A DNA stretch of 32,000 bases from assembly GCF_036409475.1 (NCBI RefSeq), contig NZ_JAYRCK010000005.1, forward strand, positions 142,335 through 174,334, given 5' to 3'. The notes beneath the pieces were generated by a model. That model ran no database searches. It was not told the DNA's origin and was given only the letters and a program-made list of their open reading frames with translations. This document shows, in pieces, positions 7,768-27,438 of this stretch (position 1 is the stretch's first letter; the number at the start of each line of letters is the position of its first letter). This stretch comes from Scandinavium sp. SGZ-S8. GTDB taxonomy: Bacteria > Pseudomonadota > Gammaproteobacteria > Enterobacterales > Enterobacteriaceae. The position numbers and the translations under genes are program-made.

Positions 7768-10461
7768 ATGATCGGCGATGTACCTGATTACCTTTGTTAC
7801 TGGGGGAAAACCAGTGATTCCTCTTTACAGGAAAGTAGAGACTGGCATTTACTGGCATATCATTGTCTTGATGTCGCTGCTTGTGGATATTTGATTGTTG
7901 AGCGGAATATATATTGCGCAAAAAATTCATTATATGAATGTGGTTTAGGTGATGACGAAATTCCTGTATGGATTGCCTGGCTGTTTGCTACGCATGATAT
8001 CGGAAAATTTGCGCGAGGCTTTCAGCGACTGGTGGAATTCACTGACTCACCTTTAGTGCCTCCGGTCAATGGGGTAAATGCTTTTGCTCGTCACGATTCG
8101 CTGGGAATGTATTTATGGCAAAAATTATACCGTGGCTGGTTGGCGGGAAAGAATAATATTCTTCCTGATATCCCTCCTGAAGAACGCGATGAGTATGAAG
8201 ACGCATTGCATTCCTGGATGTCAGTCAGCACAGGGCACCACGGATTACCTCCCGATAACAGCAATAAAAAAATACCCCTGGCATTTTGTGATGATGATAT
8301 TGCGGCGGCGGAACATTTCATGGAAGACCTGAGTCAGTTATTTCCAATAAAAATACCGGCACAGTGGAAAGATAAAAACGGAAGGAAAAATATCCGTCAG
8401 CAAAGCTGGTTTTTTGCCGGGCTGATGACGTTATGCGACTGGATGGGATCGGATCAAACGCTATTTCCTGTCGTCAGTACGCCAATGCCATTGCCAGAAT
8501 ACTGGCCTCTTGCCTGTGAAAGGGCGCAACGTGCGCTATCAGCTATTCCTTCCCCCTCGGAACCCAATCCCTATTCAGGTTATCAGACACTGTTTCCATT
8601 CATTCGTCAGCTAACGCCTCTTCAGCAACGTGCGACGACCCTGGATATCTCCTCGCCGGGTCCTCAGTTGATTATCCTGGAAGATGTCACCGGTGCGGGG
8701 AAAACGGAAGCCGCGTTAATCCTCGCGCATCGGCTGTTATCTGCGGGAAAAGGACAGGGGCTGTATGTCGGTTTGCCGGGGATGGCGACCGCCAATGCGA
8801 TGTACCAGCGGCTGCAGAAAGCGTATCGACAATTGTTCAGTGAGGAATCACAGCCCTCGTTGATTCTGGCACACAGCGGCCGGGAAATGTCAGAGGCCTT
8901 TCGTCAATCCATCTGGCAACCGTCAGCGACTGATGCGCAACCCTATTCCGCCAGCGAGGCCACTGCCTCCGGTCAGTGCCACGCCTGGTATGCCGATTCG
9001 CGCAAAAAAGCGTTACTCGCTGAAATGGGCGTGGGCACACTCGATCAGCTCCTGATGGCGGTCATGCCTTTTCGTCATCAGTCACTGCGTTTACTGGGCA
9101 TGCGTGACAAAGTGCTGCTGCTGGACGAAGTCCATGCCTACGATAGCTACATGGTCAGGCTGCTGGAAGGATTGCTCCATTTTCATGCGGCTCAGGGCGG
9201 TAGCGCAATTATCCTCAGTGCAACGTTGCCGGCTTCATTACGGGAAAAACTGCTTGCTGCTTTTAACGATGGCGCAGGTTTTCCCCCTCAAACGCCCGAT
9301 GAAGCCGATTACCCCTGGTTAAGTCATCTCAGTGCCGCTGGGCTATATGAGCAACCACTTCCTACCAGACCCGAGGTTCAGCGCACGGTAGCGGTGAATG
9401 CCCTTGTCGAGCCTTCTGACGCCATGGCGTTAATTCATCAGGCCGTCGCTGCGGGTCAGTGTATTTGCTGGATCCGTAACACGGTAGATGAAGCGCTGGA
9501 CATCTATCAGCAGCTGCTCGCGGCCGGGACGCTTCCGGCAGCCGATATTTTGTTGTTTCACAGCCGTTTTGCCTTTGCCGATCGTCTGGCAATAGAAGAG
9601 AAAACCCTCAACTGGTTTGGTAAAGATGCTCCTCCTGTGTCGCGCAAAGGCAAAGTGCTGATCGCCACTCAGGTGGTGGAGCAATCGCTTGATGTAGATT
9701 TCGACTGGATGATTTCCGATCTCGCGCCCATCGATCTGCTTATCCAGCGTGCCGGGCGGTTGCAACGTCATATTCGCGATGCTGAAGGCAACCCCAAATC
9801 TCAGCTTCCCGACGAACGTCAGCCGCCGGTATTGCATCTTTATGGTCCGCAATGGCAGGAAGATGCTCACCCTGAAGAGTATGCCAAAGCGCTGAAGGGA
9901 ACAGGCTATATCTACCCCGATCACGGCTGTTTGTGGCGCACTCAGGCGCTGCTGCGTCAGGTGGGAGAAATCCGTATGCCGGAAGGGGCAAGAACGCTGG
10001 TCGACGGCGTCTATGAGCAGAAAATTGCTGCGCCAGCAGGATTACAAACAGTTTCCGATCTGGCGTTTGGTCAGGATTTATCCCGCCGTTCGGTGGCCGC
10101 ACAAAATTTGCTCAGCCGAAATAAGGGCTATGACCGCGAGGCCAGCGATTTCTTGTGGAGTGAAGATCGGGAGTTTTCAACGCGTCTGGGCGAACCCAGT
10201 CTCGATGTCTATCTGGCGTGGCCAGATGGTGACGGAATATTGCAGCCCATCGTTCGCGAAGGCGATTTTCGCTGGGAGAAAAGCCGGATTTCGTTACGGG
10301 AATCCTGGTGGCGCAAACATCAGGCACAGCTTGAACAGCCGGAAGAAGAGCAACTGGCGCTGTTTCGTAAACAGCAGCATCGCCCTACGGCGCAGGTGGT
10401 GTTGGTGTCAGAACAAGGGGAAGCGGCGTATTACAGCAAGCGCTTTGGGTTGACTGGGTGA
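7768..10461 (+). CDS. cas3: Type I-E CRISPR-associated helicase/nuclease Cas3 (HD + SF2 helicase)
   Basis: The track ORF 7717..10461 starts at a TTG. I prefer the ATG at 7768 (MIGDVPDYLCYWGKTS...), which matches typical Cas3 N-termini (..YWGK..). HD motifs are LAYHCLDVAA, HDIGKF and TGHHG. Helicase motifs are TGAGKTEAA (Walker A), LLDEVHAYD (DEAH), ILSATLP and QRAGRLQRH. Confidence 0.93.
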   Translation: MIGDVPDYLCYWGKTSDSSLQESRDWHLLAYHCLDVAACGYLIVERNIYCAKNSLYECGLGDDEIPVWIAWLFATHDIGKFARGFQRLVEFTDSPLVPPVNGVNAFARHDSLGMYLWQKLYRGWLAGKNNILPDIPPEERDEYEDALHSWMSVSTGHHGLPPDNSNKKIPLAFCDDDIAAAEHFMEDLSQLFPIKIPAQWKDKNGRKNIRQQSWFFAGLMTLCDWMGSDQTLFPVVSTPMPLPEYWPLACERAQRALSAIPSPSEPNPYSGYQTLFPFIRQLTPLQQRATTLDISSPGPQLIILEDVTGAGKTEAALILAHRLLSAGKGQGLYVGLPGMATANAMYQRLQKAYRQLFSEESQPSLILAHSGREMSEAFRQSIWQPSATDAQPYSASEATASGQCHAWYADSRKKALLAEMGVGTLDQLLMAVMPFRHQSLRLLGMRDKVLLLDEVHAYDSYMVRLLEGLLHFHAAQGGSAIILSATLPASLREKLLAAFNDGAGFPPQTPDEADYPWLSHLSAAGLYEQPLPTRPEVQRTVAVNALVEPSDAMALIHQAVAAGQCICWIRNTVDEALDIYQQLLAAGTLPAADILLFHSRFAFADRLAIEEKTLNWFGKDAPPVSRKGKVLIATQVVEQSLDVDFDWMISDLAPIDLLIQRAGRLQRHIRDAEGNPKSQLPDERQPPVLHLYGPQWQEDAHPEEYAKALKGTGYIYPDHGCLWRTQALLRQVGEIRMPEGARTLVDGVYEQKIAAPAGLQTVSDLAFGQDLSRRSVAAQNLLSRNKGYDREASDFLWSEDREFSTRLGEPSLDVYLAWPDGDGILQPIVREGDFRWEKSRISLRESWWRKHQAQLEQPEEEQLALFRKQQHRPTAQVVLVSEQGEAAYYSKRFGLTG

Positions 10462-10530
10462 TTATCCCCGCTGACGCGGGGAACTGAAAAGCACTTTCCT
10501 ACGGTTCATCCCTATGATCATAAGGAACAT
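10458..10530 (-). ncRNA. Mini-CRISPR / crRNA-like RNA gene: psiR1 (10530-10502), 15-nt pseudo-spacer (10501-10487), psiR2 (10486-10458)
   Basis: The minus strand reads ATGTTCCTTATGATCATAGGGATGAACCG - TAGGAAAGTGCTTTT - CAGTTCCCCGCGTCAGCGGGGATAATCAC. psiR2 matches the array repeat (GTCA-loop variant) at 24/29, with an intact hairpin and cleavage-site context. psiR1 matches at 17/29. It keeps both termini (TGTTCC... and ...GGGATgAACCG, a 7/8 5'-handle). Its altered interior still forms a 6-bp stem (CCTTAT/ATAGGG) plus a GATC tetraloop at exactly the canonical stem positions. Confidence 0.6.
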
Positions 10531-10534
10531 GAAA

Positions 10535-10563
10535 ATTGTAGCAGAATTCTTGATAAAGAATAA
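10535..10563 (-). promoter_or_regulatory. Candidate sigma70 promoter for the mini-CRISPR (extended -10)
   Basis: The minus strand reads TGcTACAAT (10543-10535), an extended -10. A weak -35 TTATTC (10563-10558) lies at 17-nt spacing. The predicted start falls within the first bases of psiR1, around 10530-10528. Confidence 0.4.
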
Positions 10564-10581
10564 TGAACTTAATTTTTTTCT

Positions 10582-10599
10582 AAAAGCACTTTCCTACTT
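10582..10599 (+). promoter_or_regulatory. Predicted Cascade binding site: 15-nt match to the pseudo-spacer plus AAG PAM
   Basis: Plus strand AAAAGCACTTTCCTA (10582-10596) is identical to 10487-10501, so it is complementary to the predicted psi-crRNA. The adjacent CTT (10597-10599) equals 5'-AAG-3' on the non-target strand, immediately 5' of the protospacer. That is the optimal type I-E PAM. At the mini-array locus itself the same position is the repeat-derived CCG. Confidence 0.5.
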
Positions 10600-10759
10600 A
10601 ATTTGATTATTGTGTTTCATTAGTGGCTGTTGCATAGTTGACCAAGGAAGGGCCGATTTATCAGTAAAGGAGCCCCGGAAGAGGAGATTCCGTACTGAAT
10701 CTGTATAAGTAACTGCGATCTAAAACGTCCAGGTTACCAGCTACTGAAAGGTATCTTTT

Positions 10760-10840
10760 ATGACGATTTCTTTTGTGCTTAATCAGCCAGAAATGATCAT
10801 GTTATTTGCATTTCTTCTGTCTGGCTTAAAGCGTCTATAA
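10760..10840 (+). CDS. Hypothetical 26-aa hydrophobic peptide (MTISFVLNQPEMIMLFAFLLSGLKRL)
   Basis: ATG at 10760 is preceded by GAAAGG 9-14 nt upstream, and TAA is at 10838-10840. The product is a hydrophobic core with a basic C-terminal KR. It is too short for composition-based support, and no homolog is known to me. Confidence 0.2.
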   Translation: MTISFVLNQPEMIMLFAFLLSGLKRL

Positions 10841-10845
10841 CGTTT

Positions 10846-10867
10846 GGCTGGCCCAGATGGGCCAGCC
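10846..10867 (+). other. Perfect 10+10 inverted repeat (GGCTGGCCCA-ga-TGGGCCAGCC) just upstream of the cse1 RBS
   Basis: Read directly from the sequence. It lies 5 nt after the small ORF stop and 4 nt before the AGGAG Shine-Dalgarno (10872-10876) of cse1. No U-tract follows. Confidence 0.6.
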
Positions 10868-10884
10868 CTACAGGAGTGAATTGA

Positions 10885-12444
10885 ATGGATTTGATCACGG
10901 AAAGATGGCTGCCCGTTACGCTCACATCGGGTGAGCAAATCAAAATCTCTCTTTCTGAACTACTGGCTGACAACATTGTTGATGCTGCCTATCCCCGTGC
11001 CGATTTTCAGGGCGCAGCCTGGCAGATGCTTATCGGCATCATGCAATGCACGGTCGCACCGGAAGACAGGGGAGAGTGGAAGAGTGTATGGAAGAAGGGG
11101 ATAGACGAATCGCAGTGGAAAAAGGCGCTGGGCGTTATTTCCTCTGCGCTGCAGTTTGGCGAACAGAAACCCTCGTTTTTGCAGAGTTTCGATGCACTGG
11201 ACTGTGAGGCTGGTCCTGTCAGCGGGCTGCTGATTGACGCACCAGGCGGGAACGCCCTCAAGCTGAATAAAGATCATTTTGTTAAGCGTGGCAATACGGA
11301 CAGGATCTGCCCTCATTGCGCCGTCATGGCGCTGTTTACCGTTCAGACTAACTCACCCGCAGGCGGTGCGGGATTTCGGGTCGGTATGCGCGGCGGTGGG
11401 CCGTTGACTACGCTGGTTGTCCCGCAGGATGAAGCCTCGGTTCCGCTGTGGAAGAAGCTGTGGCTTAACGTGTTAGTGCAGGAGACGGCCCTCACAACTG
11501 CACAGCTACCGCTGATTTTCCCATGGCTTGCGGCGACCAGAACCAGCGAAAAACCGGGCAACAGTGTAACGCCGGACAACGCCCATCCTCTTCAGGCTTA
11601 TTGGGGCATGCCACGTCGCATTGAACTGGATTTTTCGTCAACCGAGCCCGGGCGTTGCTCGCTCTGCGGCGAGACACACGACAATCTGCTGATACAAATG
11701 CGCGGCAAAAACTATGGCGTTCAGTATGACAGTTGGCGGCATCCGTTTTCACCCTATCGGGCGGCGCTGAAAGATCCGTCCGCGCCCTGGCTGGCGCTAA
11801 AAGGGCAACCTGGCGGGCTAAGTTATAAAGACTGGATGGGCCTGCTGTGGGACAGCGAAGATAACTATAACAAAACGCAGCCTGCAAAAGTGGTCAGGGC
11901 CGCGAGCAGAGTCAGCGACACGCACCTGTGGTGTTTTGCCTATGACATGGATAATGCCAAGGCCCGCTGCTGGTATCAGCATCGTATCCCCATGATTAAC
12001 ACCTCCGTCCCTGAACTTTTCAATGGCGTGATGACGAGTGTGATTTCCACGGCATCTGATGCTCTCTTTGTGCTGAAAAAAGCGCTGAAAAGCGCCATGT
12101 TTGATGCGCCTTCAGAGGCAAAAGTGGATTTCAGCATGCGGGAGATTGCTTTCTGGCAGGAAACTGAACCGGCTTTTCGTCGGTTAGTGGCGGCACTGAC
12201 AGCCGATCCTCATTGTGCTGAGCAAAAGACCCGCAAGGCGCTTCGCCTGTGGGACAGCGAGCTGCATCATTATGTGATTACCGCATTCGACCGTCAGATC
12301 CTCACGAATGCGGATTGCCCCGACAAAATTCTCATGCGCCAGCTCGACGCCCGTCGCGTGCTGGAGAGTGATTACAGCAAACTCAAGGCGCGCAAGGAAT
12401 TACTCATGAGCGCAGAGGAAGATAAGGAAACCCGCCATGATTAA
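10885..12444 (+). CDS. cse1: Type I-E Cascade large subunit Cse1/Cas8e (CasA)
   Basis: 519-aa ORF with AGGAG 8 nt upstream. The N-terminus MDLITERWLPV... and the motif GGAGFRVGMRGGGPLTTLV parallel E. coli CasA (NWIPV...; GGGFKSGLRGGTPVTTFV). It has the CxxC...CxxC-like pair CPHC/CSLCG. It is the first gene of the Cascade operon. Confidence 0.9.
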   Translation: MDLITERWLPVTLTSGEQIKISLSELLADNIVDAAYPRADFQGAAWQMLIGIMQCTVAPEDRGEWKSVWKKGIDESQWKKALGVISSALQFGEQKPSFLQSFDALDCEAGPVSGLLIDAPGGNALKLNKDHFVKRGNTDRICPHCAVMALFTVQTNSPAGGAGFRVGMRGGGPLTTLVVPQDEASVPLWKKLWLNVLVQETALTTAQLPLIFPWLAATRTSEKPGNSVTPDNAHPLQAYWGMPRRIELDFSSTEPGRCSLCGETHDNLLIQMRGKNYGVQYDSWRHPFSPYRAALKDPSAPWLALKGQPGGLSYKDWMGLLWDSEDNYNKTQPAKVVRAASRVSDTHLWCFAYDMDNAKARCWYQHRIPMINTSVPELFNGVMTSVISTASDALFVLKKALKSAMFDAPSEAKVDFSMREIAFWQETEPAFRRLVAALTADPHCAEQKTRKALRLWDSELHHYVITAFDRQILTNADCPDKILMRQLDARRVLESDYSKLKARKELLMSAEEDKETRHD

Positions 12445-16850: not shown

Positions 16851-19800
16851 GTGTTCCCCGCGCCAGCGGGGATAAACCGCGAGTTATTAGAGGCTTGGTG
16901 GTTGCTGTACGGTGTTCCCCGCGCCAGCGGGGATAAACCGAAACTGACCTCCTACGTGACTGCGGGCAAGCTGTGTTCCCCGCGCCAGCGGGGATAAACC
17001 GGATGTTGATCCGCACGATGAATATCTGTGCTGGTGTTCCCCGCGTGAGCGGGGATAAACCGCGTGAGCAGGAAATCCGCCGGCAGTTCGCAGCGTGTTC
17101 CCCGCGTGAGCGGGGATAAACCGGCGCACGCCGACTTTGAGGCGCTCTATCAGGCGTGTTCCCCGCGTGAGCGGGGATAAACCGGCACAGGCGCTGATTA
17201 ACGCGCTGCAGGGTCAGTGTTCCCCGCGTCAGCGGGGATAAACCGGCCGCATTCAAACAGGCTGGGCAGGAGGGGGAGTGTTCCCCGCGTCAGCGGGGAT
17301 AAACCGAGGCGCAACAATCAGCAGAATTTACGTACATAGTGTTCCCCGCGTCAGCGGGGATAAACCGAAAGTGGCACCAATCCCGGGTCTGTTTGAACAG
17401 TGTTCCCCGCGTCAGCGGGGATAAACCGCGTTTTGGTCTATTACGTTTGTGCTGCCGCGCGTGTTCCCCGCGTCAGCGGGGATAAACCGCCTAATTCAAC
17501 GGCCCTTGCGGCGTTCCCCGGGTGTTCCCCGCGTCAGCGGGGATAAACCGACGCATCTGACGCGGACGTCTGCCAAACAGGAGTGTTCCCCGCGTCAGCG
17601 GGGATAAACCGCGATCACGAGGTCTTCATATGCAGGCTGAGCGGTGTTCCCCGCGTGAGCGGGGATAAACCGTCTACTTAACTTCATCTATGAGCAGTCG
17701 AACAGTGTTCCCCGCGTGAGCGGGGATAAACCGCAGAGGATTAATACGCACCAAGCAAGCCACCAGTGTTCCCCGCGTGAGCGGGGATAAACCGAGGCGC
17801 CACAATCTCAGGTGACGGAGTCGCCGGTGTTCCCCGCGTGAGCGGGGATAAACCGCATGGCGATGCAGCAGTAACAACGGACGGTAAGTGTTCCCCGCGT
17901 GAGCGGGGATAAACCGCCTAGTTTTCCGTACTTTACCAGCGTGGTATTGTGTTCCCCGCGTGAGCGGGGATAAACCGAACATTCAAGGATCTATGACCTG
18001 TCACCTGGGGTGTTCCCCGCGTGAGCGGGGATAAACCGCCTCCAGATACGCCGAACGCCGCCAAATTTCCGTGTTCCCCGCGTGAGCGGGGATAAACCGG
18101 GTGGATTCTACGCCACTAACTTAAAACGATTGTGTTCCCCGCGTGAGCGGGGATAAACCGAAAAAACAGAGTATTCATGGTTTCTCCATAGCGTGTTCCC
18201 CGCGTGAGCGGGGATAAACCGATGGCCTTCGCCGCGTTCTCCTCGTGAGCAATGTGTTCCCCGCGTGAGCGGGGATAAACCGATATTTTTTGACAAGTCA
18301 AGCGGAAAGAATCTGTGTTCCCCGCGTGAGCGGGGATAAACCGCATTACGGCGGAAACTACTCCGGACCGGGCGCGTGTTCCCCGCGTGAGCGGGGATAA
18401 ACCGCTGGTGGCGTTTGATAACAGGCTGCTGATGCTGTGTTCCCCGCGTGAGCGGGGATAAACCGGCCGTGGTCCAGTGGCCGCACAATATGAAACTGTG
18501 TTCCCCGCGTGAGCGGGGATAAACCGCGAGTCCGGCTTTACATCGCACCAATCGCACGGTGTTCCCCGCGTGAGCGGGGATAAACCGCAGAAATGCCAAT
18601 GCAACGCCTGAAATGAATTGTGTTCCCCGCGTGAGCGGGGATAAACCGGGGCGAGCGAAATAATGCCAGTAGAAACAGCAGTGTTCCCCGCGTGAGCGGG
18701 GATAAACCGCGCATTGCTGATCTGGAGAAAGATGCTCAGGGGTGTTCCCCGCGTGAGCGGGGATAAACCGGGGCGAGCGAAATAATGCCAGTAGAAACAG
18801 CAGTGTTCCCCGCGTGAGCGGGGATAAACCGCTATTTGCTGGACCGAGACAATTAACGAAGCAGTGTTCCCCGCGTGAGCGGGGATAAACCGCTGGCAGA
18901 ACGCCTGCACGCCATCAAAGAACAGTGTTCCCCGCGTGAGCGGGGATAAACCGTCTTATAACAGTTTTATGTTATATGCCCCTGTGTGTTCCCCGCGTGA
19001 GCGGGGATAAACCGCAGCTTGACAGGTTGGGCGAAGAGAGGGGGGCGTGTTCCCCGCGTGAGCGGGGATAAACCGCCTAGAGCAGCGAATAACGTACAGT
19101 GAGCAGGGTGTTCCCCGCGTGAGCGGGGATAAACCGTGATCGATATAGCCAGGCACAGAATACGTTGGGTGTTCCCCGCGTGAGCGGGGATAAACCGTAG
19201 ATTAAATTTAGCTAGCTGTTTTAGGCGCTGTGTTCCCCGCGTGAGCGGGGATAAACCGATTACATTCGCCCACTGGAGAGGATCCCCGGCTGTGTTCCCC
19301 GCGTGAGCGGGGATAAACCGGGTTCAGACGGGAACAGATTGCTGCTACGGAAGTGTTCCCCGCGTGAGCGGGGATAAACCGCAGTAATAGATGACACCCT
19401 GGTAGTTTTCGAAGTGTTCCCCGCGTGAGCGGGGATAAACCGCACAGACGGAAACAATACCCGGGCAATGATAGTGTTCCCCGCGTCAGCGGGGATAAAC
19501 CGCGCAACGTCAATTTGCGCATCATCAAGGGAATGTGTTCCCCGCGTCAGCGGGGATAAACCGGTGGCGGGCGGCGTAACGATTTACGGTGGCCAGTGTT
19601 CCCCGCGTCAGCGGGGATAAACCGGTTATCGACATTACCGCCAAGCGCGAAGGCTTGTGTTCCCCGCGTCAGCGGGGATAAACCGCCCATCACCGGATCC
19701 CAAACGACGACGCGCTGGTGTTCCCCGCGTGAGCGGGGATAAACCGGCCCGAACATCCAGGAGCGGCAACGGGCAATAGTGTTCCCCGCGTGAGCGGGGA

Positions 19801-21698
19801 TAAACCGGGCATCAGTATTAGTAATTGACATACCGAGCTGTGTTCCCCGCGTGAGCGGGGATAAACCGCGCATATCAAGAGGCGCAAGTTGCTAAAGCTA
19901 GTGTTCCCCGCGTGAGCGGGGATAAACCGCCAGCATTGATAACAGCGTTAGAAAAGCGGCAGTGTTCCCCGCGTGAGCGGGGATAAACCGTGAATCATGA
20001 CAGTGGGGGGTTCCACAAAAGAGTGTTCCCCGCGTGAGCGGGGATAAACCGAATACAAAAAATCGAGGTGAGGAGGGGGGATAGTGTTCCCCGCGTGAGC
20101 GGGGATAAACCGTGAGCGTTAAATTATCCGCATACGTCTGGGATGTGTTCCCCGCGTGAGCGGGGATAAACCGCTGTTACGTGGAGCGGTACGGTCTGGA
20201 TTTCTGTGTTCCCCGCGTGAGCGGGGATAAACCGCACGGCACGGTCAAGGACTTCGTGAAGTTCCGGTGTTCCCCGCGTGAGCGGGGATAAACCGCGATT
20301 ACCAATCAGTGGTTAGTGGTGATAATGGTGTTCCCCGCGTGAGCGGGGATAAACCGCAAATTGTCGAGCTGCTCAACCAGTTATTCGCGTGTTCCCCGCG
20401 TGAGCGGGGATAAACCTGGTTTTCGTCATAATGCTCTCCGGTTATCTGCGTGTTCCCCGCGTGAGCGGGGATAAACCGCCAGATAGCCATCGCTGAAAAA
20501 TCCCGCCGCAGTGTTCCCCGCGTGAGCGGGGATAAACCGCCGCCGTAAAAGCTGTTGCAAACACCGCGCAGGTGTTCCCCGCGTGAGCGGGGATAAACCG
20601 CGACATCGGTGAAAAAATTAGGCTGATTAGGGGTGTTCCCCGCGTGAGCGGGGATAAACCGGGATTGCGATCAGCAGCACCAGCCGGGCAACGGTGTTCC
20701 CCGCGTGAGCGGGGATAAACCGGGGATGATATGCGATTACCGGACAGCGTTCAGGTGTTCCCCGCGTGAGCGGGGATAAACCGCTGGCAGAACGCCTGCA
20801 CGCCATCAAAGAACAGTGTTCCCCGCGTGAGCGGGGATAAACCGGCGCTGAATGAAGCTGTAGAAAACTATCAATCGTGTTCCCCGCGTGAGCGGGGATA
20901 AACCGGGGGCAGCGAAATAATGCCAGTAGAAACAGCAGTGTTCCCCGCGTGAGCGGGGATAAACCGTAAAAACACAATCATCAACAACAATCACCGCAGT
21001 GTTCCCCGCGTGAGCGGGGATAAACCGCATCCATAGCAGATGTATCAAGCGGGTAATTAGTGTTCCCCGCGTGAGCGGGGATAAACCGACAGAAAAACTC
21101 AAGTTCATAGGTACACATCTGTGTTCCCCGCGTGAGCGGGGATAAACCGCAGGTACTGCAAAACACATTCCCAACAGCGACGTGTTCCCCGCGTGAGCGG
21201 GGATAAACCGGTTACCTGTCCAGTGCCGTTCGTTGGGAGAAAGTGTTCCCCGCGTGAGCGGGGATAAACCGCATGCAACTGCATGATGTACGGTTCAGTT
21301 AGCGTGTTCCCCGCGTGAGCGGGGATAAACCGAGAGTCAGAAGGTGATTTACCTCCGCCAGGGGGTGTTCCCCGCGTCAGCGGGGATAAACCGTTAGAAT
21401 GAGAGCGCACGGCCACACCGCAAACGTGTTCCCCGCGCCAGCGGGGATAAACCGCCCATCACCGGATCCCAAACGACGACGCGCTGGTGTTCCCCGCGCC
21501 AGCGGGGATAAACCGAATACTGGCGTTACGGTACTGCGCTTTAATCTGTGTTCCCCGCGCCAGCGGGGATAAACCGGCGACGGTGTTGAGTTGGCTCTTG
21601 GTACCCCTGTGTTCCCCGCGCCAGCGGGGATAAACCGCGTGGACATTGGGTATCGTTCAAGGCTCTCTGGTGTTCCCCGCGTTAGCGGGGATAAACAG
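16851..21698 (+). CRISPR. Type I-E CRISPR array, 80 repeats / 79 spacers
   Basis: The 29-nt repeat is GTGTTCCCCGCG[C/T][C/G]AGCGGGGATAAACCG. I checked every unit against the 61-nt period. 77 spacers are 32 nt, one is 33 nt (S40, 19259-19291) and one is 31 nt (S43, 19443-19473). Tetraloop variants occur in blocks: R1-3 GCCA, R4-6 GTGA, R7-13 GTCA, R14-43 GTGA, R44-47 GTCA, R48-74 GTGA, R75 GTCA, R76-79 GCCA. The terminal R80 (21670-21698) is degenerate (GTTA loop, ...AAACAG end). R59 ends in T (20417). Confidence 0.99.
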
Positions 21699-21880: not shown

Positions 21881-22720
21881 TCATTTCCTGAGTTGGCCGT
21901 ACGGTGAACCCTGCACTTTGACATTCCTCGGCGGAACCCCAAATTCTTTGCGAAAACAGGTCGTGAACCAGGAGTGATCGTCAAAACCACAATCCTGGGC
22001 GACAGACGTGATGGCTTTATTGCTGTAAAGCAGTTGGTAAAGTGCATTAAACAATCGGACTTTATTTAAATATCGCTGGGGTGACAGGCCCACATCTTTA
22101 TCAAGATAGCGATGCATGGTTCGCACTGTAATGGAAAACTGTGAGGCCAGTTGTCCCCAGTCAATATGTTCCTGATAATTGGCATGCAGCCAGCGAATTA
22201 ATCTCAGGGTTCTTCTCTCGTTAGTATTGTTCTTGTCGTAAAAATAGCTGCAATGCCGCAGGTCTACCAGCAGCCGTAAAAAAAGACTCTCTTGTTCAAT
22301 GTATCCTTGGTGCTGGCTGGCAATTAATTTATCCAGTGCGTCGTTTATCATGCCTGCACTTTGTCTGTCTAAAAAACGGTGAATATGGTACGAGGCAAAT
22401 TGTTTTGGGATTAAGGCTTCAAACCCTTTAATCAAATGGAAGTGGGCCGATGGCTGATAATAGATATTAATCACGCTTAGGTTTTGAGTATGCTCATAGA
22501 TTTGCTGGTCGGTGGCTTGGGTAAAAAAGAGCATTCGTGGATAAATAGTGTAAGGTTTCCCATTAATAATATGCAGGCCGATACCATCAGCGATAAAGGT
22601 TATCTTGCTGAAATTAAAATTTGGTTTTGGTGAATAGTGTTGCGGAATGCGTGAGGTAATAATGATGTTTTGATGCTCTGAGATAAAGTGATCTTGAGAT
22701 GCCAGTTTATTCATAATCAA
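21881..22720 (-). CDS. AraC/XylS-family transcriptional regulator
   Basis: 279-aa ORF with a cupin-like N-terminal half. The C-terminal double-HTH signature is ...IDWGQLASQFSITVRTMHRYLDKDVGLSPQRYLNKVRLFNALYQLL...SVAQDCGFDDHSWFTTCFRKEFGVPP. The start could be Met1 or Met3. Confidence 0.9.
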   Translation of the reverse strand: MIMNKLASQDHFISEHQNIIITSRIPQHYSPKPNFNFSKITFIADGIGLHIINGKPYTIYPRMLFFTQATDQQIYEHTQNLSVINIYYQPSAHFHLIKGFEALIPKQFASYHIHRFLDRQSAGMINDALDKLIASQHQGYIEQESLFLRLLVDLRHCSYFYDKNNTNERRTLRLIRWLHANYQEHIDWGQLASQFSITVRTMHRYLDKDVGLSPQRYLNKVRLFNALYQLLYSNKAITSVAQDCGFDDHSWFTTCFRKEFGVPPRNVKVQGSPYGQLRK

Positions 22721-22770
22721 GATGTATTCTTCAGGTTTTCTCTATTTACAGGGTATACACGCTATCACAT

Positions 22771-22801
22771 AAAGGCTAAAGAGCTAAGCCCTTTAGCCTT
22801 T
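22771..22801. terminator. Perfect 11-bp stem-loop between the HPr-like gene and the araC-family gene (possible terminator)
   Basis: AAAGGCTAAAG-agctaagcc-CTTTAGCCTTT. The flanking sequence is only moderately U-rich on either strand, so terminator function is uncertain. Confidence 0.35.
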
Positions 22802-22838
22802 ATTATTTGGGCAAAGTGATGATTAAAAACGCTAGCGA

Positions 22839-23105
22839 TTATTTTTCGCCAAACCCGGCGTCGAACAAGGCTTTGATTTCTGAATAAACGGCTTGTTCAT
22901 CTTCGCCATCACAAAAAACATCAACGCTTGCTCCGCCCGTTATTCCGGCAGTCATGAGTCCTATGACGCTTTTTCCTTTTATGACCTTTTCTTTAAACAG
23001 AAACTCTACTTTTGCATGATGTCTGGAAACAACTTTAACGATGGCACTGGCTGGCCGGGCATGCAAACCCGTCGTGTTGTTTACACGTAATGTTTCTCTA
23101 ATCAT
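22839..23105 (-). CDS. HPr-family phosphocarrier protein (operon-specific PtsH paralog)
   Basis: 88-aa ORF. NTTGLHARPAS contains the HPr active-site His motif (GLHARPA). The size and ...GKSVIGLMT... region are typical of HPr. Confidence 0.9.
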   Translation of the reverse strand: MIRETLRVNNTTGLHARPASAIVKVVSRHHAKVEFLFKEKVIKGKSVIGLMTAGITGGASVDVFCDGEDEQAVYSEIKALFDAGFGEK

Positions 23106-23150
23106 TCAACTCATCCTGAAGTGAATAGGAATGCTGATGTCAGCTGTGGG

Positions 23151-24206
23151 TTACAGCCTGATTAACATATCGCTATGTCCTGTTTTGAAATATTCGTTCA
23201 ACACAGTTTTCAACAAATAAGGTGCTTTCGGAATAGCATCAATGGTGTCACCCGCAATATGGGGAGTGAGCGTAACGTTATCCAGTTCCAACAAGGGATC
23301 GTTGTTTTCAATGGGTTCACACCAGCTGACATCCAGCGCAGCACCGGCGATGCGCTTATTCTGCAATGCGTCGATCAAATCTTCTTTGCAGACGACGCCC
23401 GCTCTCGCGGTGTTGATGATATAGCTGCCAGGTTTCATTTTATTAAAGATGTCTTTATTGATCATCCCCTCTGTTTCGGGTGTTAAGCGCATGTGCAAAG
23501 ACAAAATATCCGCTTGTGATACCACGCTTTCCAGAGGCAGAAGTTCCACCTGAATGCCTTCTTTGCTTAGCATGGCGGCTTCAATAAAGGGATCGTGAGC
23601 AATCACTTTTATGCCTAACGCATTGAGTCTTTTAGCCACTAATTTCCCAATGTAACCAAGCCCAATCAGGCCTACCGTATGGTTAGCCAACACGGTTTTG
23701 AAGGCATCGTTAGAAAAGCTTTTACACCACTGACCCGTTTTAATCGCATGGTGAGCACGCGCGATATTCCTGGTTTCGGCATACATCAGGCTGAGCGTGA
23801 AGTCTGCCACCGGCTCGGCGTTGCGGATCACATGAATGAGCGTAATGCCCTTCTGCTTCACGCTGTCCAGCGCAATATGCTCAAGGCCACCGCGACAGGT
23901 GCCAATCAGTTTCAGCTTATTGGCAGCTTGCAGCATGGCGTTTGATACGGGGGCAATGTGCACCAGAAGGTAATCCGCTTCACGCATCGCCTCGATAATG
24001 CCGTCTGGCACAGGAACCGCCTCAGGGCCATGCTTTTCTATTTGCAGTATTTTTGCCTGGAACGCTTCTTTATCCAGCTGTGAAAACCATTCGAACGTGG
24101 CGATGTCGAGCTCTTCGCCGTTTCGGCCAGCAAAATCAATGCCTTTGGCCGCATCCATTAACGTCGCACTGCTGACCAGCGCATCTCCCACTATGACCAG
24201 TTTCAT
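23151..24206 (-). CDS. D-isomer-specific 2-hydroxyacid dehydrogenase family, NAD-binding
   Basis: 351-aa ORF. The Rossmann motif is VGLIGLGYIGKLVAKRL. A conserved ...NTARAGVV...AALDV...TPHIAG... region carries the catalytic Arg/Glu/His context of the family. Confidence 0.85.
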   Translation of the reverse strand: MKLVIVGDALVSSATLMDAAKGIDFAGRNGEELDIATFEWFSQLDKEAFQAKILQIEKHGPEAVPVPDGIIEAMREADYLLVHIAPVSNAMLQAANKLKLIGTCRGGLEHIALDSVKQKGITLIHVIRNAEPVADFTLSLMYAETRNIARAHHAIKTGQWCKSFSNDAFKTVLANHTVGLIGLGYIGKLVAKRLNALGIKVIAHDPFIEAAMLSKEGIQVELLPLESVVSQADILSLHMRLTPETEGMINKDIFNKMKPGSYIINTARAGVVCKEDLIDALQNKRIAGAALDVSWCEPIENNDPLLELDNVTLTPHIAGDTIDAIPKAPYLLKTVLNEYFKTGHSDMLIRL

Positions 24207-24211
24207 GGTTA

Positions 24212-25627
24212 TTATCCTTTTTCCGTAAGGGTTTTTTGTTCATCATTTACGCTGACCTGTCTTTCAAGATAAGCATGAATGGCCTCTCGTTTGATGCGCA
24301 CGAAAAGATAGAACACGATGTAAACAATGACGCTAAGCGCAATATAAAGTGGGTTTTGCGTAAGGAAGATGAGGAATAACCCGCCCATAAGATGGTTAGT
24401 CATCACGGCAAAGCTGCAAATTAACAACGCGCCAGCCGGGAGAATCACGCCAACACTTTTGGCGACGTCGGTGAAGACCGGAGCCACTGCGGTAATGATA
24501 TATAACCCGCCAACGCACCAGATTGCGCCAGAAATAAGCGATTTAAAAATGTTGCCACCCGAGATAGCGATAATAAGTTCAATCATATACGGGATAGCAA
24601 TCAGGTCGACCATGGGGAGCGTCTGATTACCGGGTAAGATAATGGCCAAAATAAAGATGACAGGAATAAGCAACATTCCGGTCAGTAAGGTGGCGGATTC
24701 GCCATAGCCTGCGGCATCGTTAATCGCCAGATACCAGACCCGATTCTGGCCACTGCTTTTGGCGGTTTTTCTGGAGGCATCGGTGAGGGTGGTGAAGGCT
24801 GAGGCGAAAACCCCGGCGATTTTAGGGAAGATGCACATCACGGCTGCTGTGGCGATCCCCACTTTGCAGACTTCACCCCAGGCTTCTAAGGTCTCCAGGC
24901 GCGTATAGTTGCCGGCAAGCCCAATTAAGCAGCCTAATACCAGGCCCAGACTGATGGGCTCGCCCATAAAACCTAATTTTTGCTGTAAGGTTTCCGGGTT
25001 CCATTTAACTTTGTTGGCGCCTAACTTATTAAGGATCCAGTCGACGACAATAGCTAAGGGAACTGAGCAGACATGGTGTGGAGCCGTCATGGTGCACCCG
25101 GGGTAGCCATAGTAGGTAGACCAGCGTTTGGCGACAATTTCGGAACAGACCAAAGAATATAAATTCGACAACAGCATCAAACCAATGGCCAAATAAATGT
25201 TGCCCGTTGCGATATAGAGCATTGACCCCCAGAGCATAAAGGAAAAGTTATTCCACATGTCTGAGGGCATAAAGATATTCGTAAAGCGGGTGATAAATAA
25301 AATTGTCTGAAACAGGAGCCCGAGGCCCAAAAAAATCATCCCAACATTGGTTGAGTAGGCGACAACGCTGGTTGCCTGCCAGCCGGTGTCCAGAATACGC
25401 AACGAAATGCCTGATGTTTCCACCATACGGGTGATGACGGGAGTGACGACAGGCGTATAGGCACCAATCAGCATGCCGAAGCCGGTTAAACCAATACCGG
25501 CATTCAAGCCTGCTTTCAGTGCCTTTTTATGATTCACCTTCATAATCAGCGCGATGATATAAATGATAAATGGAACAATTATCGCCGCGCCAAAGGAGTT
25601 CATAATTTTCGACAGAAGATCTAACAT
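24212..25627 (-). CDS. PTS EIIC component, galactitol (Gat) family
   Basis: 471-aa polytopic membrane protein. The segments GEPISLGLVLGCLIGLAGNY and PGNQTLPMVDL parallel E. coli GatC (GEPVTVGFVMGLIIGILAGY; PGNQVLPFGDL). Confidence 0.88.
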   Translation of the reverse strand: MLDLLSKIMNSFGAAIIVPFIIYIIALIMKVNHKKALKAGLNAGIGLTGFGMLIGAYTPVVTPVITRMVETSGISLRILDTGWQATSVVAYSTNVGMIFLGLGLLFQTILFITRFTNIFMPSDMWNNFSFMLWGSMLYIATGNIYLAIGLMLLSNLYSLVCSEIVAKRWSTYYGYPGCTMTAPHHVCSVPLAIVVDWILNKLGANKVKWNPETLQQKLGFMGEPISLGLVLGCLIGLAGNYTRLETLEAWGEVCKVGIATAAVMCIFPKIAGVFASAFTTLTDASRKTAKSSGQNRVWYLAINDAAGYGESATLLTGMLLIPVIFILAIILPGNQTLPMVDLIAIPYMIELIIAISGGNIFKSLISGAIWCVGGLYIITAVAPVFTDVAKSVGVILPAGALLICSFAVMTNHLMGGLFLIFLTQNPLYIALSVIVYIVFYLFVRIKREAIHAYLERQVSVNDEQKTLTEKG

Positions 25628-25770
25628 TTTCCCCTCTCATGCTTCTTGTGATCAGAATTAAGCTGAGAACGGTTGACTGTTCAGCAACGCTTTCTGATGA
25701 ATAGATAAAATCTACAGAGATCGTAAGCTGCAACAAAACAGCAGAGTGCAGCGTCGGGTAGACACGCTTT

Positions 25771-25794
25771 CTCCATAAACTGAGGTTTATGGAG
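25771..25794 (-). other. Perfect 10-bp stem-loop in the EIIB-EIIC intercistronic gap
   Basis: The plus strand reads CTCCATAAAC-tgag-GTTTATGGAG. It starts 10 nt after the EIIB stop on the transcribed (minus) strand. No U-tract follows. Confidence 0.5.
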
Positions 25795-25803
25795 ATGTCG
25801 TGA

Positions 25804-26103
25804 TTAAATTTTTAATTTCTCTACGGCGTTGAGTAATTCTTCGATAAAACCATCTTCGTCAGTGCCTATTAATAATCCTACGGCATTAATGGTCGGGAGG
25901 TCGTAGGTGTCCTTGAGTGGGCTGGTGTGAACAATAATGTCCCACTTTCCTGAACTCAATTGTCCTTCGACGCCGCCTGGATTGACTTCAACCGTTTTGG
26001 CTTTGTATCCATTGACGTCAAGAATATCTTTTACTTTTTCGGCAACCATGGAACTGGTCACGGTGCCGGACCCACAAACAGAAATGACATTGATATTTTT
26101 CAT
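25804..26103 (-). CDS. PTS EIIB component, galactitol family
   Basis: 99-aa ORF. The N-terminal NVISVCGSGTVTSSM has the phospho-Cys motif of GatB/SgcB-type EIIB (compare IIVACGGAVATSTM). Confidence 0.88.
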   Translation of the reverse strand: MKNINVISVCGSGTVTSSMVAEKVKDILDVNGYKAKTVEVNPGGVEGQLSSGKWDIIVHTSPLKDTYDLPTINAVGLLIGTDEDGFIEELLNAVEKLKI

Positions 26104-26133
26104 CTGTGCTTCCTTTATAGGTTTATTGTTGGG

Positions 26134-26955
26134 TTATAAAATCCCTGCTCGTGGTGTGACATTGAACGTATCAGCCAACGCTCTTAATTCATCGCTCGTA
26201 ATAGACTGCTTAATTCCGGAGGTTACCGCAGAGGCGCGCAGGTAAATATCTGCGGCTTTGTCGACGGTTTCGACCAGACCCAACGCATCATCCAGATTAC
26301 AGCCTGCGCCCATAATGCCGTGATGCGCCCAGATGACGATTCGGCAATATTCCATCTTTTCAGCTGAGGCCAGGCCGAGGTCAATGGTGCCAGCCACCAT
26401 CCACGGCACAATCCCAACGCCTTCCGGGAACACGACCAGGCATTCGGTAATCTGCTGCCACAGCGTTTTTGAAAATTTCTTTTCATCAAGGTCGTGGACA
26501 AATGTCATCGCGATAGTGGCTGTGGCATGAGTGTGTAAAATGACCCGATGGCTGGGGTCGTGCTTCAGACGAGTGTCATGACATTTTAAATGGGAGGCTA
26601 ATTCACTGGTGGGCGTGCCACCGTTAACCAGACCCCACAGGCGGTGGTAATGTCGGCCATCTGCGGAGACTTTCAGGATAACCAGCGTATCGGCAGGATT
26701 TTTGATGACATTGCGAAAATACTTCCCGGATCCCGATACCAGAAAGATTTTGTTAGCCAGATCCGGCAGCGCAATAGGCAGCTCGATTTTGTCGAGCAAC
26801 TGTTCCGTATTCAGGTAAGGGGCAACGTCTTCTTCATTCAGAAGATAGCTGATATTGCCGCCATTTCTTTCCGCCCACCCTTTCTCCCATAATTTAAGAG
26901 TAATATCGCTCATCTCTTTGATAAACGGCGCTTCATTAATGTTATAGATAATCAT
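26134..26955 (-). CDS. Class II aldolase, rhamnulose-1-phosphate aldolase (RhaD)-like
   Basis: 273-aa ORF. [35 protein letters not shown], HTHAT and [20 protein letters not shown] align with E. coli RhaD motifs ([60 protein letters not shown]). Confidence 0.85.
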   Translation of the reverse strand: [273 protein letters not shown]

Positions 26956-26964
26956 AGTGTCACC

Positions 26965-27438
26965 TTATAATGAGACTGAATTGAAAAATTCAAAAACGTC
27001 ATCCGCAGAAGTTAACGCCTTCAGGGCTTCGACTCTCTCGTGATGTGAAAATATGGACATCAATGTCTGCAGCAGGAATATTTGATTTTCTGCCTGGGTG
27101 ACGCCCAGTGAAAATATCCAGTCGACATTGACGCTTTCATCCGTCGTCCCCATAACAAAAAAGGGCAGAGGGTTTGCCAACTGAGTGATCGCAATAAAAG
27201 GCTTCTTAATGTGCTGAGGATCGGTATGGGGGATAGCGATATTCAGCCCGGCTGCCACTAATCCTGTTGGGTACTCTTTTTCTCTGGTCACGATCTTATT
27301 GAGATAGCTTGCTTCGACGTATTCCTGCAGATACAAAGCCTGAAAAGAGTGCTTAAAAAAATCATCCTGACAATCATAGGCGGCATTTAAGGTGATCAAA
27401 GAAGGCGAGATAAACTCACTTATCGTACTTCCCATCAT
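26965..27438 (-). CDS. PTS EIIA component (mannitol/fructose/Ntr EIIA-2 fold)
   Basis: 157-aa ORF. ...EKEYPTGL...GLNIAIPHTDPQHI... contains the EIIA-2 active-site His context (AIPH). It is the first gene of the minus-strand operon. Confidence 0.85.
   Translation of the reverse strand: MMGSTISEFISPSLITLNAAYDCQDDFFKHSFQALYLQEYVEASYLNKIVTREKEYPTGLVAAGLNIAIPHTDPQHIKKPFIAITQLANPLPFFVMGTTDESVNVDWIFSLGVTQAENQIFLLQTLMSIFSHHERVEALKALTSADDVFEFFNSVSL

Follow-up and report, generated by a model that had tools for sequence, protein, structure and literature searches.

The region between cas3 and cse1 in a 32,000-nucleotide stretch of contig NZ_JAYRCK010000005.1 from Scandinavium sp. SGZ-S8 (hereafter, the window) likely carries a creA/creR gene on its minus strand, at positions 10458 to 10530. 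The product would be a guide RNA that directs Cascade to repress the promoter of the cas operon and a small open reading frame (ORF). Judging from the sequence and its comparison with related type I-E CRISPR loci, the region contains a mini-array, a conserved promoter box, and a target site that is flanked by a protospacer-adjacent motif (PAM) and located at the position of an UP element. The element is probably part of a CreTA-like module. Its kind is already known from a type I-E CreR in Salmonella enterica, a type I-E CreTA in Citrobacter rodentium, and surveys of mini-arrays. New here are the shortest pseudo-spacer among 22 such elements, with 15 nt and fully matched, and an unannotated family of small ORFs. 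A preliminary description of this stretch had taken the class as uncharacterized for enterobacterial type I-E loci, which the work on S. enterica (10.1101/2023.03.10.532045) and C. rodentium (PMC12055562) contradicts; its reading is essentially right, and its novelty was overestimated.

The mini-array comprises the following features:

10458 to 10486, minus strand: psiR2, a repeat copy (CAGTTCCCCGCGTCAGCGGGGATAATCAC; 24/29 to the GTCA-loop array repeat) that would supply the Cas6e hairpin and the 3' handle.
10487 to 10501, minus strand: psiS, the pseudo-spacer of 15 nt (TAGGAAAGTGCUUUU / TAGGAAAGTGCTTTT).
10502 to 10530, minus strand: psiR1, a degenerate repeat (ATGTTCCTTATGATCATAGGGATGAACCG; 17/29 to the repeat) that begins 44 nt upstream of psiR2.
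10535 to 10543, minus strand: extended -10 box TGcTACAAT, the putative creR/creA promoter, 4 nt before psiR1, with the start predicted at the first bases of psiR1.

Located between cas3 and cse1, 6.3 kb from the cognate array, the two repeat-like elements share little beyond their ends. psiR2 is the only 29-mer outside the array that differs from the repeat by 6 mismatches or less, and none was obtained in 20 shuffles. Its positions 3 to 25 are identical to the GTCA repeat variant, and it matches the majority GTGA variant at 23/29 positions. The last bases of psiR2 overlap the cas3 stop codon (TGA, 10459-10461). This overlap, the degree of identity to the repeat, the GTCA loop, and the intact hairpin had been noted in the preliminary description, and both the coordinates and the minimum free energy (MFE) fold agree with it.

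As a bare match, psiR1 was not significant: 15 29-mers with 12 mismatches were found in 16.8 kb versus 4.6 in shuffles. Its support therefore rests on position, structure, and comparison. A re-paired 6-bp stem, CCUUAU/AUAGGG (including one G-U pair), closes a GAUC loop at the canonical place, and the 8-nt 5' handle, AUGAACCG (ATGAACCG), is a 7/8 match. Both the psiR1 and the psiR2 hairpins were present at their canonical places in the MFE fold of the predicted transcript. The sequence also bears out what had been described for psiR1 (its identity to the repeat, distance from psiR2, stem, and handle), for the box that precedes it (10543..10535), and for the length of the pseudo-spacer (10501..10487). 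A search of the whole window against Rfam gave nothing at the gathering threshold, and only chance-level matches were obtained at E values of 10 or less in 10300-10950. The possibility of a canonical (immune) CRISPR array was rejected: the repeats are dissimilar beyond their ends, the spacer has 15 nt instead of 32 to 33 nt, and its only match is the locus itself.

That match, which the preliminary description did not mention, is located next to a predicted promoter facing the Cascade genes:

10582 to 10599, minus strand: target, composed of an AAG PAM (10599..10597) and a 15-nt protospacer (10596..10582) identical to the whole psiS (15/15).
10610 to 10638, plus strand: predicted sigma-70 promoter toward the small ORF and cse1, with TTGTGT (10610-15), a 17-nt spacer, and CATAGT (10633-38); its start is predicted near 10645.

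The 16-mer GTAGGAAAGTGCTTTT has its second copy at 10597..10582 on the minus strand, preceded by AA, whereas none was expected from 100 shuffles. The site lies 52 nt upstream of psiR1 and 289 bp from cse1, is the only PAM-plus-seed site in 32 kb, and would be paired with by the crRNA-like (CRISPR RNA-like) product on the plus strand. The end of the PAM is separated from the -35 box by 11 nt. Across 18 loci, the -35 box of the best sigma-70-like promoter started 9 to 13 nt after the PAM in 10, which puts the target where the outward promoter would have its UP element. Stronger outward promoters occur in relatives, with TTGACC-16-TATTAT in locus L045 and TTGACT-16-TATGAT in locus L008. The terminator scan found no terminator between the outward promoter and cse1.

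Phage mimics of two distinct Salmonella type I-E CreRs have been reported (10.1101/2024.10.29.618823). No such mimic (Cracr) of the window psiS was found in viral contigs, and the phage BLAST matched repeat-like sequence only. The exact 16-mer of psiS gave 19 matches in viral contigs, all of them without repeat-like flanks; by estimate only, this number is consistent with chance given the size of the collection.

Related loci were obtained by a Cse1 scan of species-representative genomes and metagenomes, supplemented with contigs encoding Salmonella Cse1 variants. Including the window, 22 distinct elements of the same build were found in enterobacterial and metagenomic type I-E loci, the named hosts being Pluralibacter, Mixta, Erwinia, Pseudescherichia, Enterobacter, Citrobacter, Tenebrionibacter, Pantoea, Apirhabdus, and Salmonella. 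The mini-array was antisense to cse1 in all of them. An AAG-flanked, seed-anchored match to the element's own psiS was likewise present in 22/22, located 29 to 92 nt upstream of psiR1. It extended without interruption over 6 to 15 positions if every sixth position was skipped, mismatches often falling on sixth positions, and shuffled psiS reached the observed match in only 0 to 2 of 300 trials. Sequences of psiS and target differ between loci; therefore, guide and target co-vary.

The psiR1 stem and the extended -10 box were examined in 14 loci. The stem was fully paired in 12 of these, with exchanges of CG to UA and of GC to AU or UA at the three inner pairs. Paired cells amounted to 92% compared to 49 to 56% with the partner slid, and 13 cells had changed on both sides, a number that compares to 4.6 in shuffles and was reached in 0/500. 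The GGG on the cleavage side of psiR1 was invariant. An extended -10 box of the form TGnTAnnnT was located 3 to 10 nt upstream of psiR1 in 12/14 loci. The preliminary description had attributed the divergence of psiR1 to selection for an RNA, not decay, a view strengthened by these pairing values, and had stated that a lack of conservation or of compensatory pairs in related loci would speak against it. Because the stem pairs compensate and the promoter box is conserved across loci, this reading stands. The assignment to the CreA/CreR class is supported by the stem covariation, the promoter box, and the co-variation of guide and target. As in that class, psiR1 and psiR2 are divergent, keep the handle and the hairpin, and are adjacent to cas genes, and a promoter region contains, next to a cognate PAM, the site that psiS matches from its PAM-proximal end. 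The length of the duplex, 15 bp, is in line with published values, as the S. enterica match has 15 nt and spacers of up to 20 nt gave no interference in Escherichia coli (PMC5159557), but here the whole guide is matched.

The length of psiS was 15 nt in the window only, 19 to 23 nt in 15 elements, and 32 to 34 nt in 6; none fell between 24 and 31 nt. These classes are compatible with steps of whole Cas7 subunits (6 nt per Cas7) in a sample that is small and whose elements are related by descent. The third position of the psiR1 handle is G in 15/22 elements (ATGAACCG or a close variant), whereas the array repeat has ATAAACCG; this G is a shared derived difference. In Rosenbergiella (L004:2841-2869) and Mixta theicola (L006, approximately 2870-2900), cas3 is divergent, and a single repeat-like hairpin immediately precedes the small ORF or lies within the leader. 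The full mini-array was not found in these two loci. Nor did blastn of positions 10400-10900 against 5,426 E. coli genomes yield a match.

On these grounds, the following sequence of events can be proposed. Transcription would start at about position 10529 of the minus strand from the element's own extended -10 promoter, and Cas6e would cut after the GGG of psiR1 and the GGGG of psiR2. The resulting 44-nt crRNA-like RNA, AUGAACCG-UAGGAAAGUGCUUUU-CAGUUCCCCGCGUCAGCGGGG, would consist of handle, 15-nt guide, and 21-nt 3' hairpin. It would be loaded into a shortened Cascade, for which about three Cas7 subunits fewer are expected from work in E. coli. By binding the AAG-flanked 15-bp site (10582-10599) and forming an R-loop on the plus strand at 10582-10596, this complex would block RNA polymerase and thereby exert negative feedback on Cascade synthesis. 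Titration of Cascade by crRNAs, or its inactivation through mutation or anti-CRISPRs, would release the feedback. The small ORF would be the first cistron of the repressed unit.

This ORF and its surroundings contain four further features:

10711 to 10741, plus strand: conserved leader block (AACTGCGATCTAAAACGTCC...ACCAGC; alignments A1 and A5) between the predicted promoter and the small ORF.
10760 to 10840, plus strand: hydrophobic ORF of 26 codons (81 bp; MTISFVLNQPEMIMLFAFLLSGLKRL), with a Shine-Dalgarno-like GAAAGG upstream.
10846 to 10867, plus strand: GC-rich hairpin GGCTGGCCC-AGAT-GGGCCAGCC without a U-tract, upstream of the cse1 Shine-Dalgarno sequence AGGAG (10872-10876).
10463 to 10861, no strand assigned: 399-bp cassette of creR, target, promoter, leader, and small ORF, absent from the closest relative (locus L063).

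The small ORF, which went unmentioned in the preliminary description, begins 122 nt after the predicted -10 box. Orthologues of 25 to 26 codons at the same distance from cse1 were present in 19 distinct loci including the window, with conserved length, frame, and hydrophobicity. Entropy by codon position was 1.31/0.56/1.44 and the grand average of hydropathy was approximately 1.1, a codon pattern such as selection for a hydrophobic peptide would give. Neither Pfam nor NCBIfam nor PADLOC contained a match to the peptide. A search of 5.8 billion database proteins, with a 40-aa first row in the query, gave only one family member, a 25-aa JGI protein identical to the copy in locus L055. The GC-rich hairpin shows compensatory changes in 5 of 8 predicted pairs and is kept in 11 loci, L063 among them. 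Since the ORF is followed by this hairpin without a U-tract and then by the Shine-Dalgarno sequence of cse1, it is probably transcribed as one unit with the Cascade genes. The most conserved nucleotides of the leader are those of its block, AACTGCATTCTAA..GGCGTC....ACCAGCAA, approximately 20 to 50 nt upstream of the small ORF. They do not resemble a sigma-70 box, and a leader RNA motif is not claimed, the consensus structure being weak (-3.7 kcal/mol).

The extent of the module became apparent from L063, which is 98.3% identical to the window through cas3 and 97.6% identical from cse1 onward. Where the window has the 399-bp cassette, L063 has 54 unrelated bp (L063:2924-2977). It lacks exactly 10463-10861; therefore, RNA gene, target, promoter, leader, and ORF behave as one cassette. 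By this comparison, the module is an indel cassette: loci that are 98% identical differ by the gain or loss of the entire block. The 16-nt duplication was rejected as a target-site duplication, both of its copies being located inside the cassette.

Two experimentally studied type I-E systems are close to the window element. In the creR locus of S. enterica ATCC 51960, psiS begins with TAG and has 15 consecutive matches to an AAG-flanked target approximately 140 bp upstream of casA (10.1101/2023.03.10.532045). Acting through E. coli Cascade, this CreR repressed PcasA-gfp 8.6-fold; mutating TAG abolished the repression, and additional crRNA or AcrIE8 relieved it (10.1101/2023.03.10.532045). L062, used as a stand-in for ATCC 51960 in our comparisons, and L016 reproduce the published description (TAGATACAGTCTTAA, AAG, 142 bp). 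The study of this CreR by Liu et al. reportedly appeared later in Cell Host Microbe (2023). The window shares with S. enterica a degenerate two-repeat mini-array upstream of casA, in which psiR1 keeps the 5' handle and psiR2 the hairpin, a psiS starting with TAG, the 15-nt consecutive match, the AAG PAM, and a target adjoining the predicted casA promoter. It differs in psiS, which is TAGATACAGTCTTAATAGCGCA (22 nt) in Salmonella and TAGGAAAGTGCTTTT (15 nt) in the window, and in the distance from target to casA/cse1 (approximately 140 bp versus 289 bp). Moreover, cas3 is divergent in the Salmonella type but co-oriented in the window, and only the window has the small ORF.

In C. rodentium, the cas3-casA intergenic region contains a CreTA module with a 96-bp ORF that is located behind a strong promoter and is toxic only if translated (Basta et al., Nat Microbiol 2025, PMC12055562). 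CreA is encoded on the opposite strand and targets a site overlapping the UP element; Cascade, not Cas3, was needed in the mouse gut (PMC12055562). The position between cas3 and casA, the opposite-strand RNA, the UP-element target, and the small ORF upstream of casA recur in the window. The C. rodentium system has a 96-bp ORF, an ATG PAM, and a 495-bp intergenic region, compared to 81 bp, AAG, and 423 bp in the window. Toxicity was demonstrated for the C. rodentium ORF, whereas the ORF of the window is a candidate likened to it by architecture. We consider the chances evenly balanced that this small ORF encodes a CreT-type toxin. If so, loss of Cascade would be penalized, as in C. rodentium CreTA.

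The alternative that survives best, which we nevertheless regard as rather unlikely, is a stand-alone CreR. The RNA would then autoregulate the Cascade operon only, and the ORF would encode a nontoxic leader peptide, for example one coupling translation to the cse1 hairpin and Shine-Dalgarno sequence, or a small membrane protein with a different role. The published S. enterica CreR indeed works without such an ORF (10.1101/2023.03.10.532045), which is absent from L062 and L016. In houtenae-type S. enterica (L058-L061:2846-2925), a 1-nt frameshift divides the ORF (MAITFS... in one frame, FNHTETSWFLIILCSALKR* in another), yet psiS (33 nt), the AAG PAM, and the target have remained intact. This arrangement suggests, on sequence grounds, that a stand-alone CreR can arise from CreTA via toxin loss. 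The ORF of the window furthermore stops just 5 nt before the conserved hairpin preceding the cse1 Shine-Dalgarno sequence, as a coupling role might have it, but in L063 this hairpin exists without the ORF, and creR and the ORF come and go jointly in a single cassette. Hydrophobic peptides of 25 to 26 aa with a basic C terminus resemble type I toxins, which counts against a stand-alone CreR, as does the C. rodentium type I-E module, where a small ORF in the same layout is toxic if translated (PMC12055562).

Read on the plus strand, psiR2 could mainly serve as the 3' end or stabilizer of the cas3 mRNA, with the rest of the element being incidental. A GC-rich hairpin, CCCCGCTGACGCGGGG, does start 5 nt past the cas3 stop codon. 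However, it has no U-tract, the terminator scan was empty, and Salmonella loci with a divergent cas3 still carry the mini-array next to cse1. Such a role would also leave psiR1, psiS, and the target unexplained, which makes it improbable other than as an additional one. As a cas3 terminator, psiR2 was rejected due to the lacking U-tract and the persistence of the mini-array where cas3 is divergent.

Perfect matching and a canonical PAM could alternatively point to a self-targeting mini-array, whose effect at the locus would be primed adaptation or damage dependent on Cas3, either as an autoimmunity liability or as a priming device. Among experiments, those on the shortened-spacer Cascade of E. 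coli provide the best model for a psiS of 15 nt. There, 14-nt (-18) spacers were processed and incorporated into a Cascade lacking three Cas7 subunits, which bound its target more weakly and gave no interference (Kuznedelov et al., NAR 2016, PMC5159557). On fully matched targets, the same spacers still primed adaptation robustly (PMC5159557). These spacers were engineered and embedded in canonical repeats, and Cas3 was not fully excluded there (PMC5159557). The preliminary description had proposed a shortened Cascade that can bind but cannot license Cas3; shortening is reasonable in light of the -18 spacers, but the second part is too strong since priming persisted (PMC5159557). We nonetheless judge self-targeting to be very unlikely: E. 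coli showed no interference once spacers measured 20 nt or less (PMC5159557), Cascade rather than Cas3 mattered in C. rodentium (PMC12055562), the S. enterica RNA repressed transcription (10.1101/2023.03.10.532045), and the arrangement has been evolutionarily stable in many lineages. The least credible alternative, a decaying element without function that derives from an inverted piece of the array or from repeats that recombination left behind at the end of cas3, might be read into the nonsignificant match of psiR1 alone and the absence of the region from the closest relative (L063), but it conflicts with the compensatory stem changes, the invariant cleavage-side GGG, and the conserved promoter box, and is excluded because psiS and the AAG-flanked site co-vary in 22 distinct loci from many genera.

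Our reading of the element as a creA/creR gene in a CreTA-like module has its own difficulties. Transcription, processing, and Cascade binding at the locus are inferred from the sequence. The outward promoter of the window scores 7/12 to the consensus and does not appear in a stricter promoter scan. Some Cas3 may still be recruited by a 15-nt guide that is matched throughout and has a perfect PAM, by analogy with E. coli; as the -18 spacers primed adaptation there, pure and harmless repression is an assumption. The small ORF is a candidate toxin likened to C. rodentium CreT by its architecture. Frameshifted in L058-61 and absent from L062 and L016, it is an ORF without which the RNA works in these Salmonella types. 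Finally, the near-identical L063 does without the cassette, which is therefore dispensable.

Tentatively, and with somewhat less than an even chance in our estimation, the observations can be joined as follows. The window would contain the smallest natural type I-E guide in the set, a fully matched 15-nt guide operating in a three-Cas7 mini-Cascade. The 25- to 26-aa hydrophobic peptides, a widespread and essentially unannotated family encoded in at least 19 distinct Enterobacterales and metagenomic loci, would be toxins that Cascade represses and that are transcribed along with its operon. The stand-alone Salmonella CreR would be a CreTA that lost its toxin by frameshift or deletion, and the 399-bp unit would move as a cassette.

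Other known systems are related more distantly. In the survey by Shmakov et al., mini-arrays are located between cas3 and cas8e in approximately 19% of bacterial type I-E loci (10.1101/2023.03.03.530964; NAR 2023). These mini-arrays resemble the window element in their more degenerate upstream repeat, seed-anchored partial matches to the cas8 promoter, AAG PAM, and mismatches at sixth positions (10.1101/2023.03.03.530964). That work is a survey-level prediction; the passages considered here mention neither the window variant nor its 15-nt psiS nor the small-ORF family (10.1101/2023.03.03.530964). The type I-B CreTA of Haloarcula hispanica (Li et al., Science 2021; Cheng et al., PMC8501985) likewise uses a crRNA-like antitoxin that guides Cascade to a toxin promoter inside the cas locus. 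Its two psiR elements are divergent too, and repression there is independent of Cas3 (PMC8501985). It belongs to a different subtype and to archaea, and its toxin is an RNA that sequesters a rare tRNA, whereas the candidate of the window is a hydrophobic peptide; the two have no sequence relationship.

The region between cas3 and casA in E. coli K-12 (L068, NC_000913.3, 2884139-2884552) contains a psiR1-like sequence, ACCTTCCCTACTTAAGTAGGGATAAACCG, with a re-paired stem and a handle, antisense to casA. Liu et al. termed this element 'K12creA'. It occupies the position and strand of its counterpart in the window but shows no DNA similarity to it, and psiR2 is barely recognizable. No member of the small-ORF family was found in this intergenic region of K-12. 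An anti-Pcas promoter was reportedly described by Pul et al. in 2010.

The module is part of a type I-E locus at the usual chromosomal site between cysH and iap, with the gene order queD, cysJIH, cas3, cse1, cse2 to cas1, array, sugar phosphotransferase system (PTS) island, iap, cysG, and cysD. Its flanking genes and the array were delimited as follows:

7768 to 10461, plus strand: cas3, its start inferred from the 897-aa gene called in L063, with the stop codon TGA at 10459-10461.
10885 to 12444, plus strand: cse1, its product identical to WP_330982871.1.
16851 to 21698, plus strand: cognate CRISPR array, 80 repeats of GTGTTCCCCGCG(TGA/TCA/CCA)GCGGGGATAAACCG.

The cas3-cse1 intergenic region measures 423 bp. 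Loop variants of the array repeats occur in the order GCCA x3, GTGA, GTCA x7, GTGA, GTCA x4, GTGA, GTCA x1, GCCA x4, and a degenerate last repeat; such blocks in the 80-repeat array suggest segments with different histories. The island between array and iap (21881-27438, minus strand) encodes a RhaS-like regulator, a 2-hydroxyacid dehydrogenase, IIC and IIA components of a galactitol-type PTS, and a rhamnulose-1-phosphate aldolase. Cse1 (WP_330982871.1) falls into a cluster of two sequences and is approximately 68% identical to the common Salmonella protein (P0013). The Iap protein of the window is 86 to 88% identical to those of Scandinavium and other Enterobacteriaceae. The host lineage is a non-Salmonella, under-sampled member of the Enterobacteriaceae.

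The known picture of CreR and CreTA biology is unchanged by these findings. They add an independent, well-resolved case of type I-E self-regulation by a crRNA-like RNA from a poorly sampled enterobacterial lineage. Through stem covariation, co-variation of guide and target, and promoter position, the set of 22 elements provides sequence-level support for a mechanism tested so far in two species. Guide-length classes of approximately 15, 21, and 33 nt fit the loss of whole Cas7 subunits, and the gene for a 26-aa peptide between the repressed promoter and cse1 may encode the common type I-E CreT toxin.

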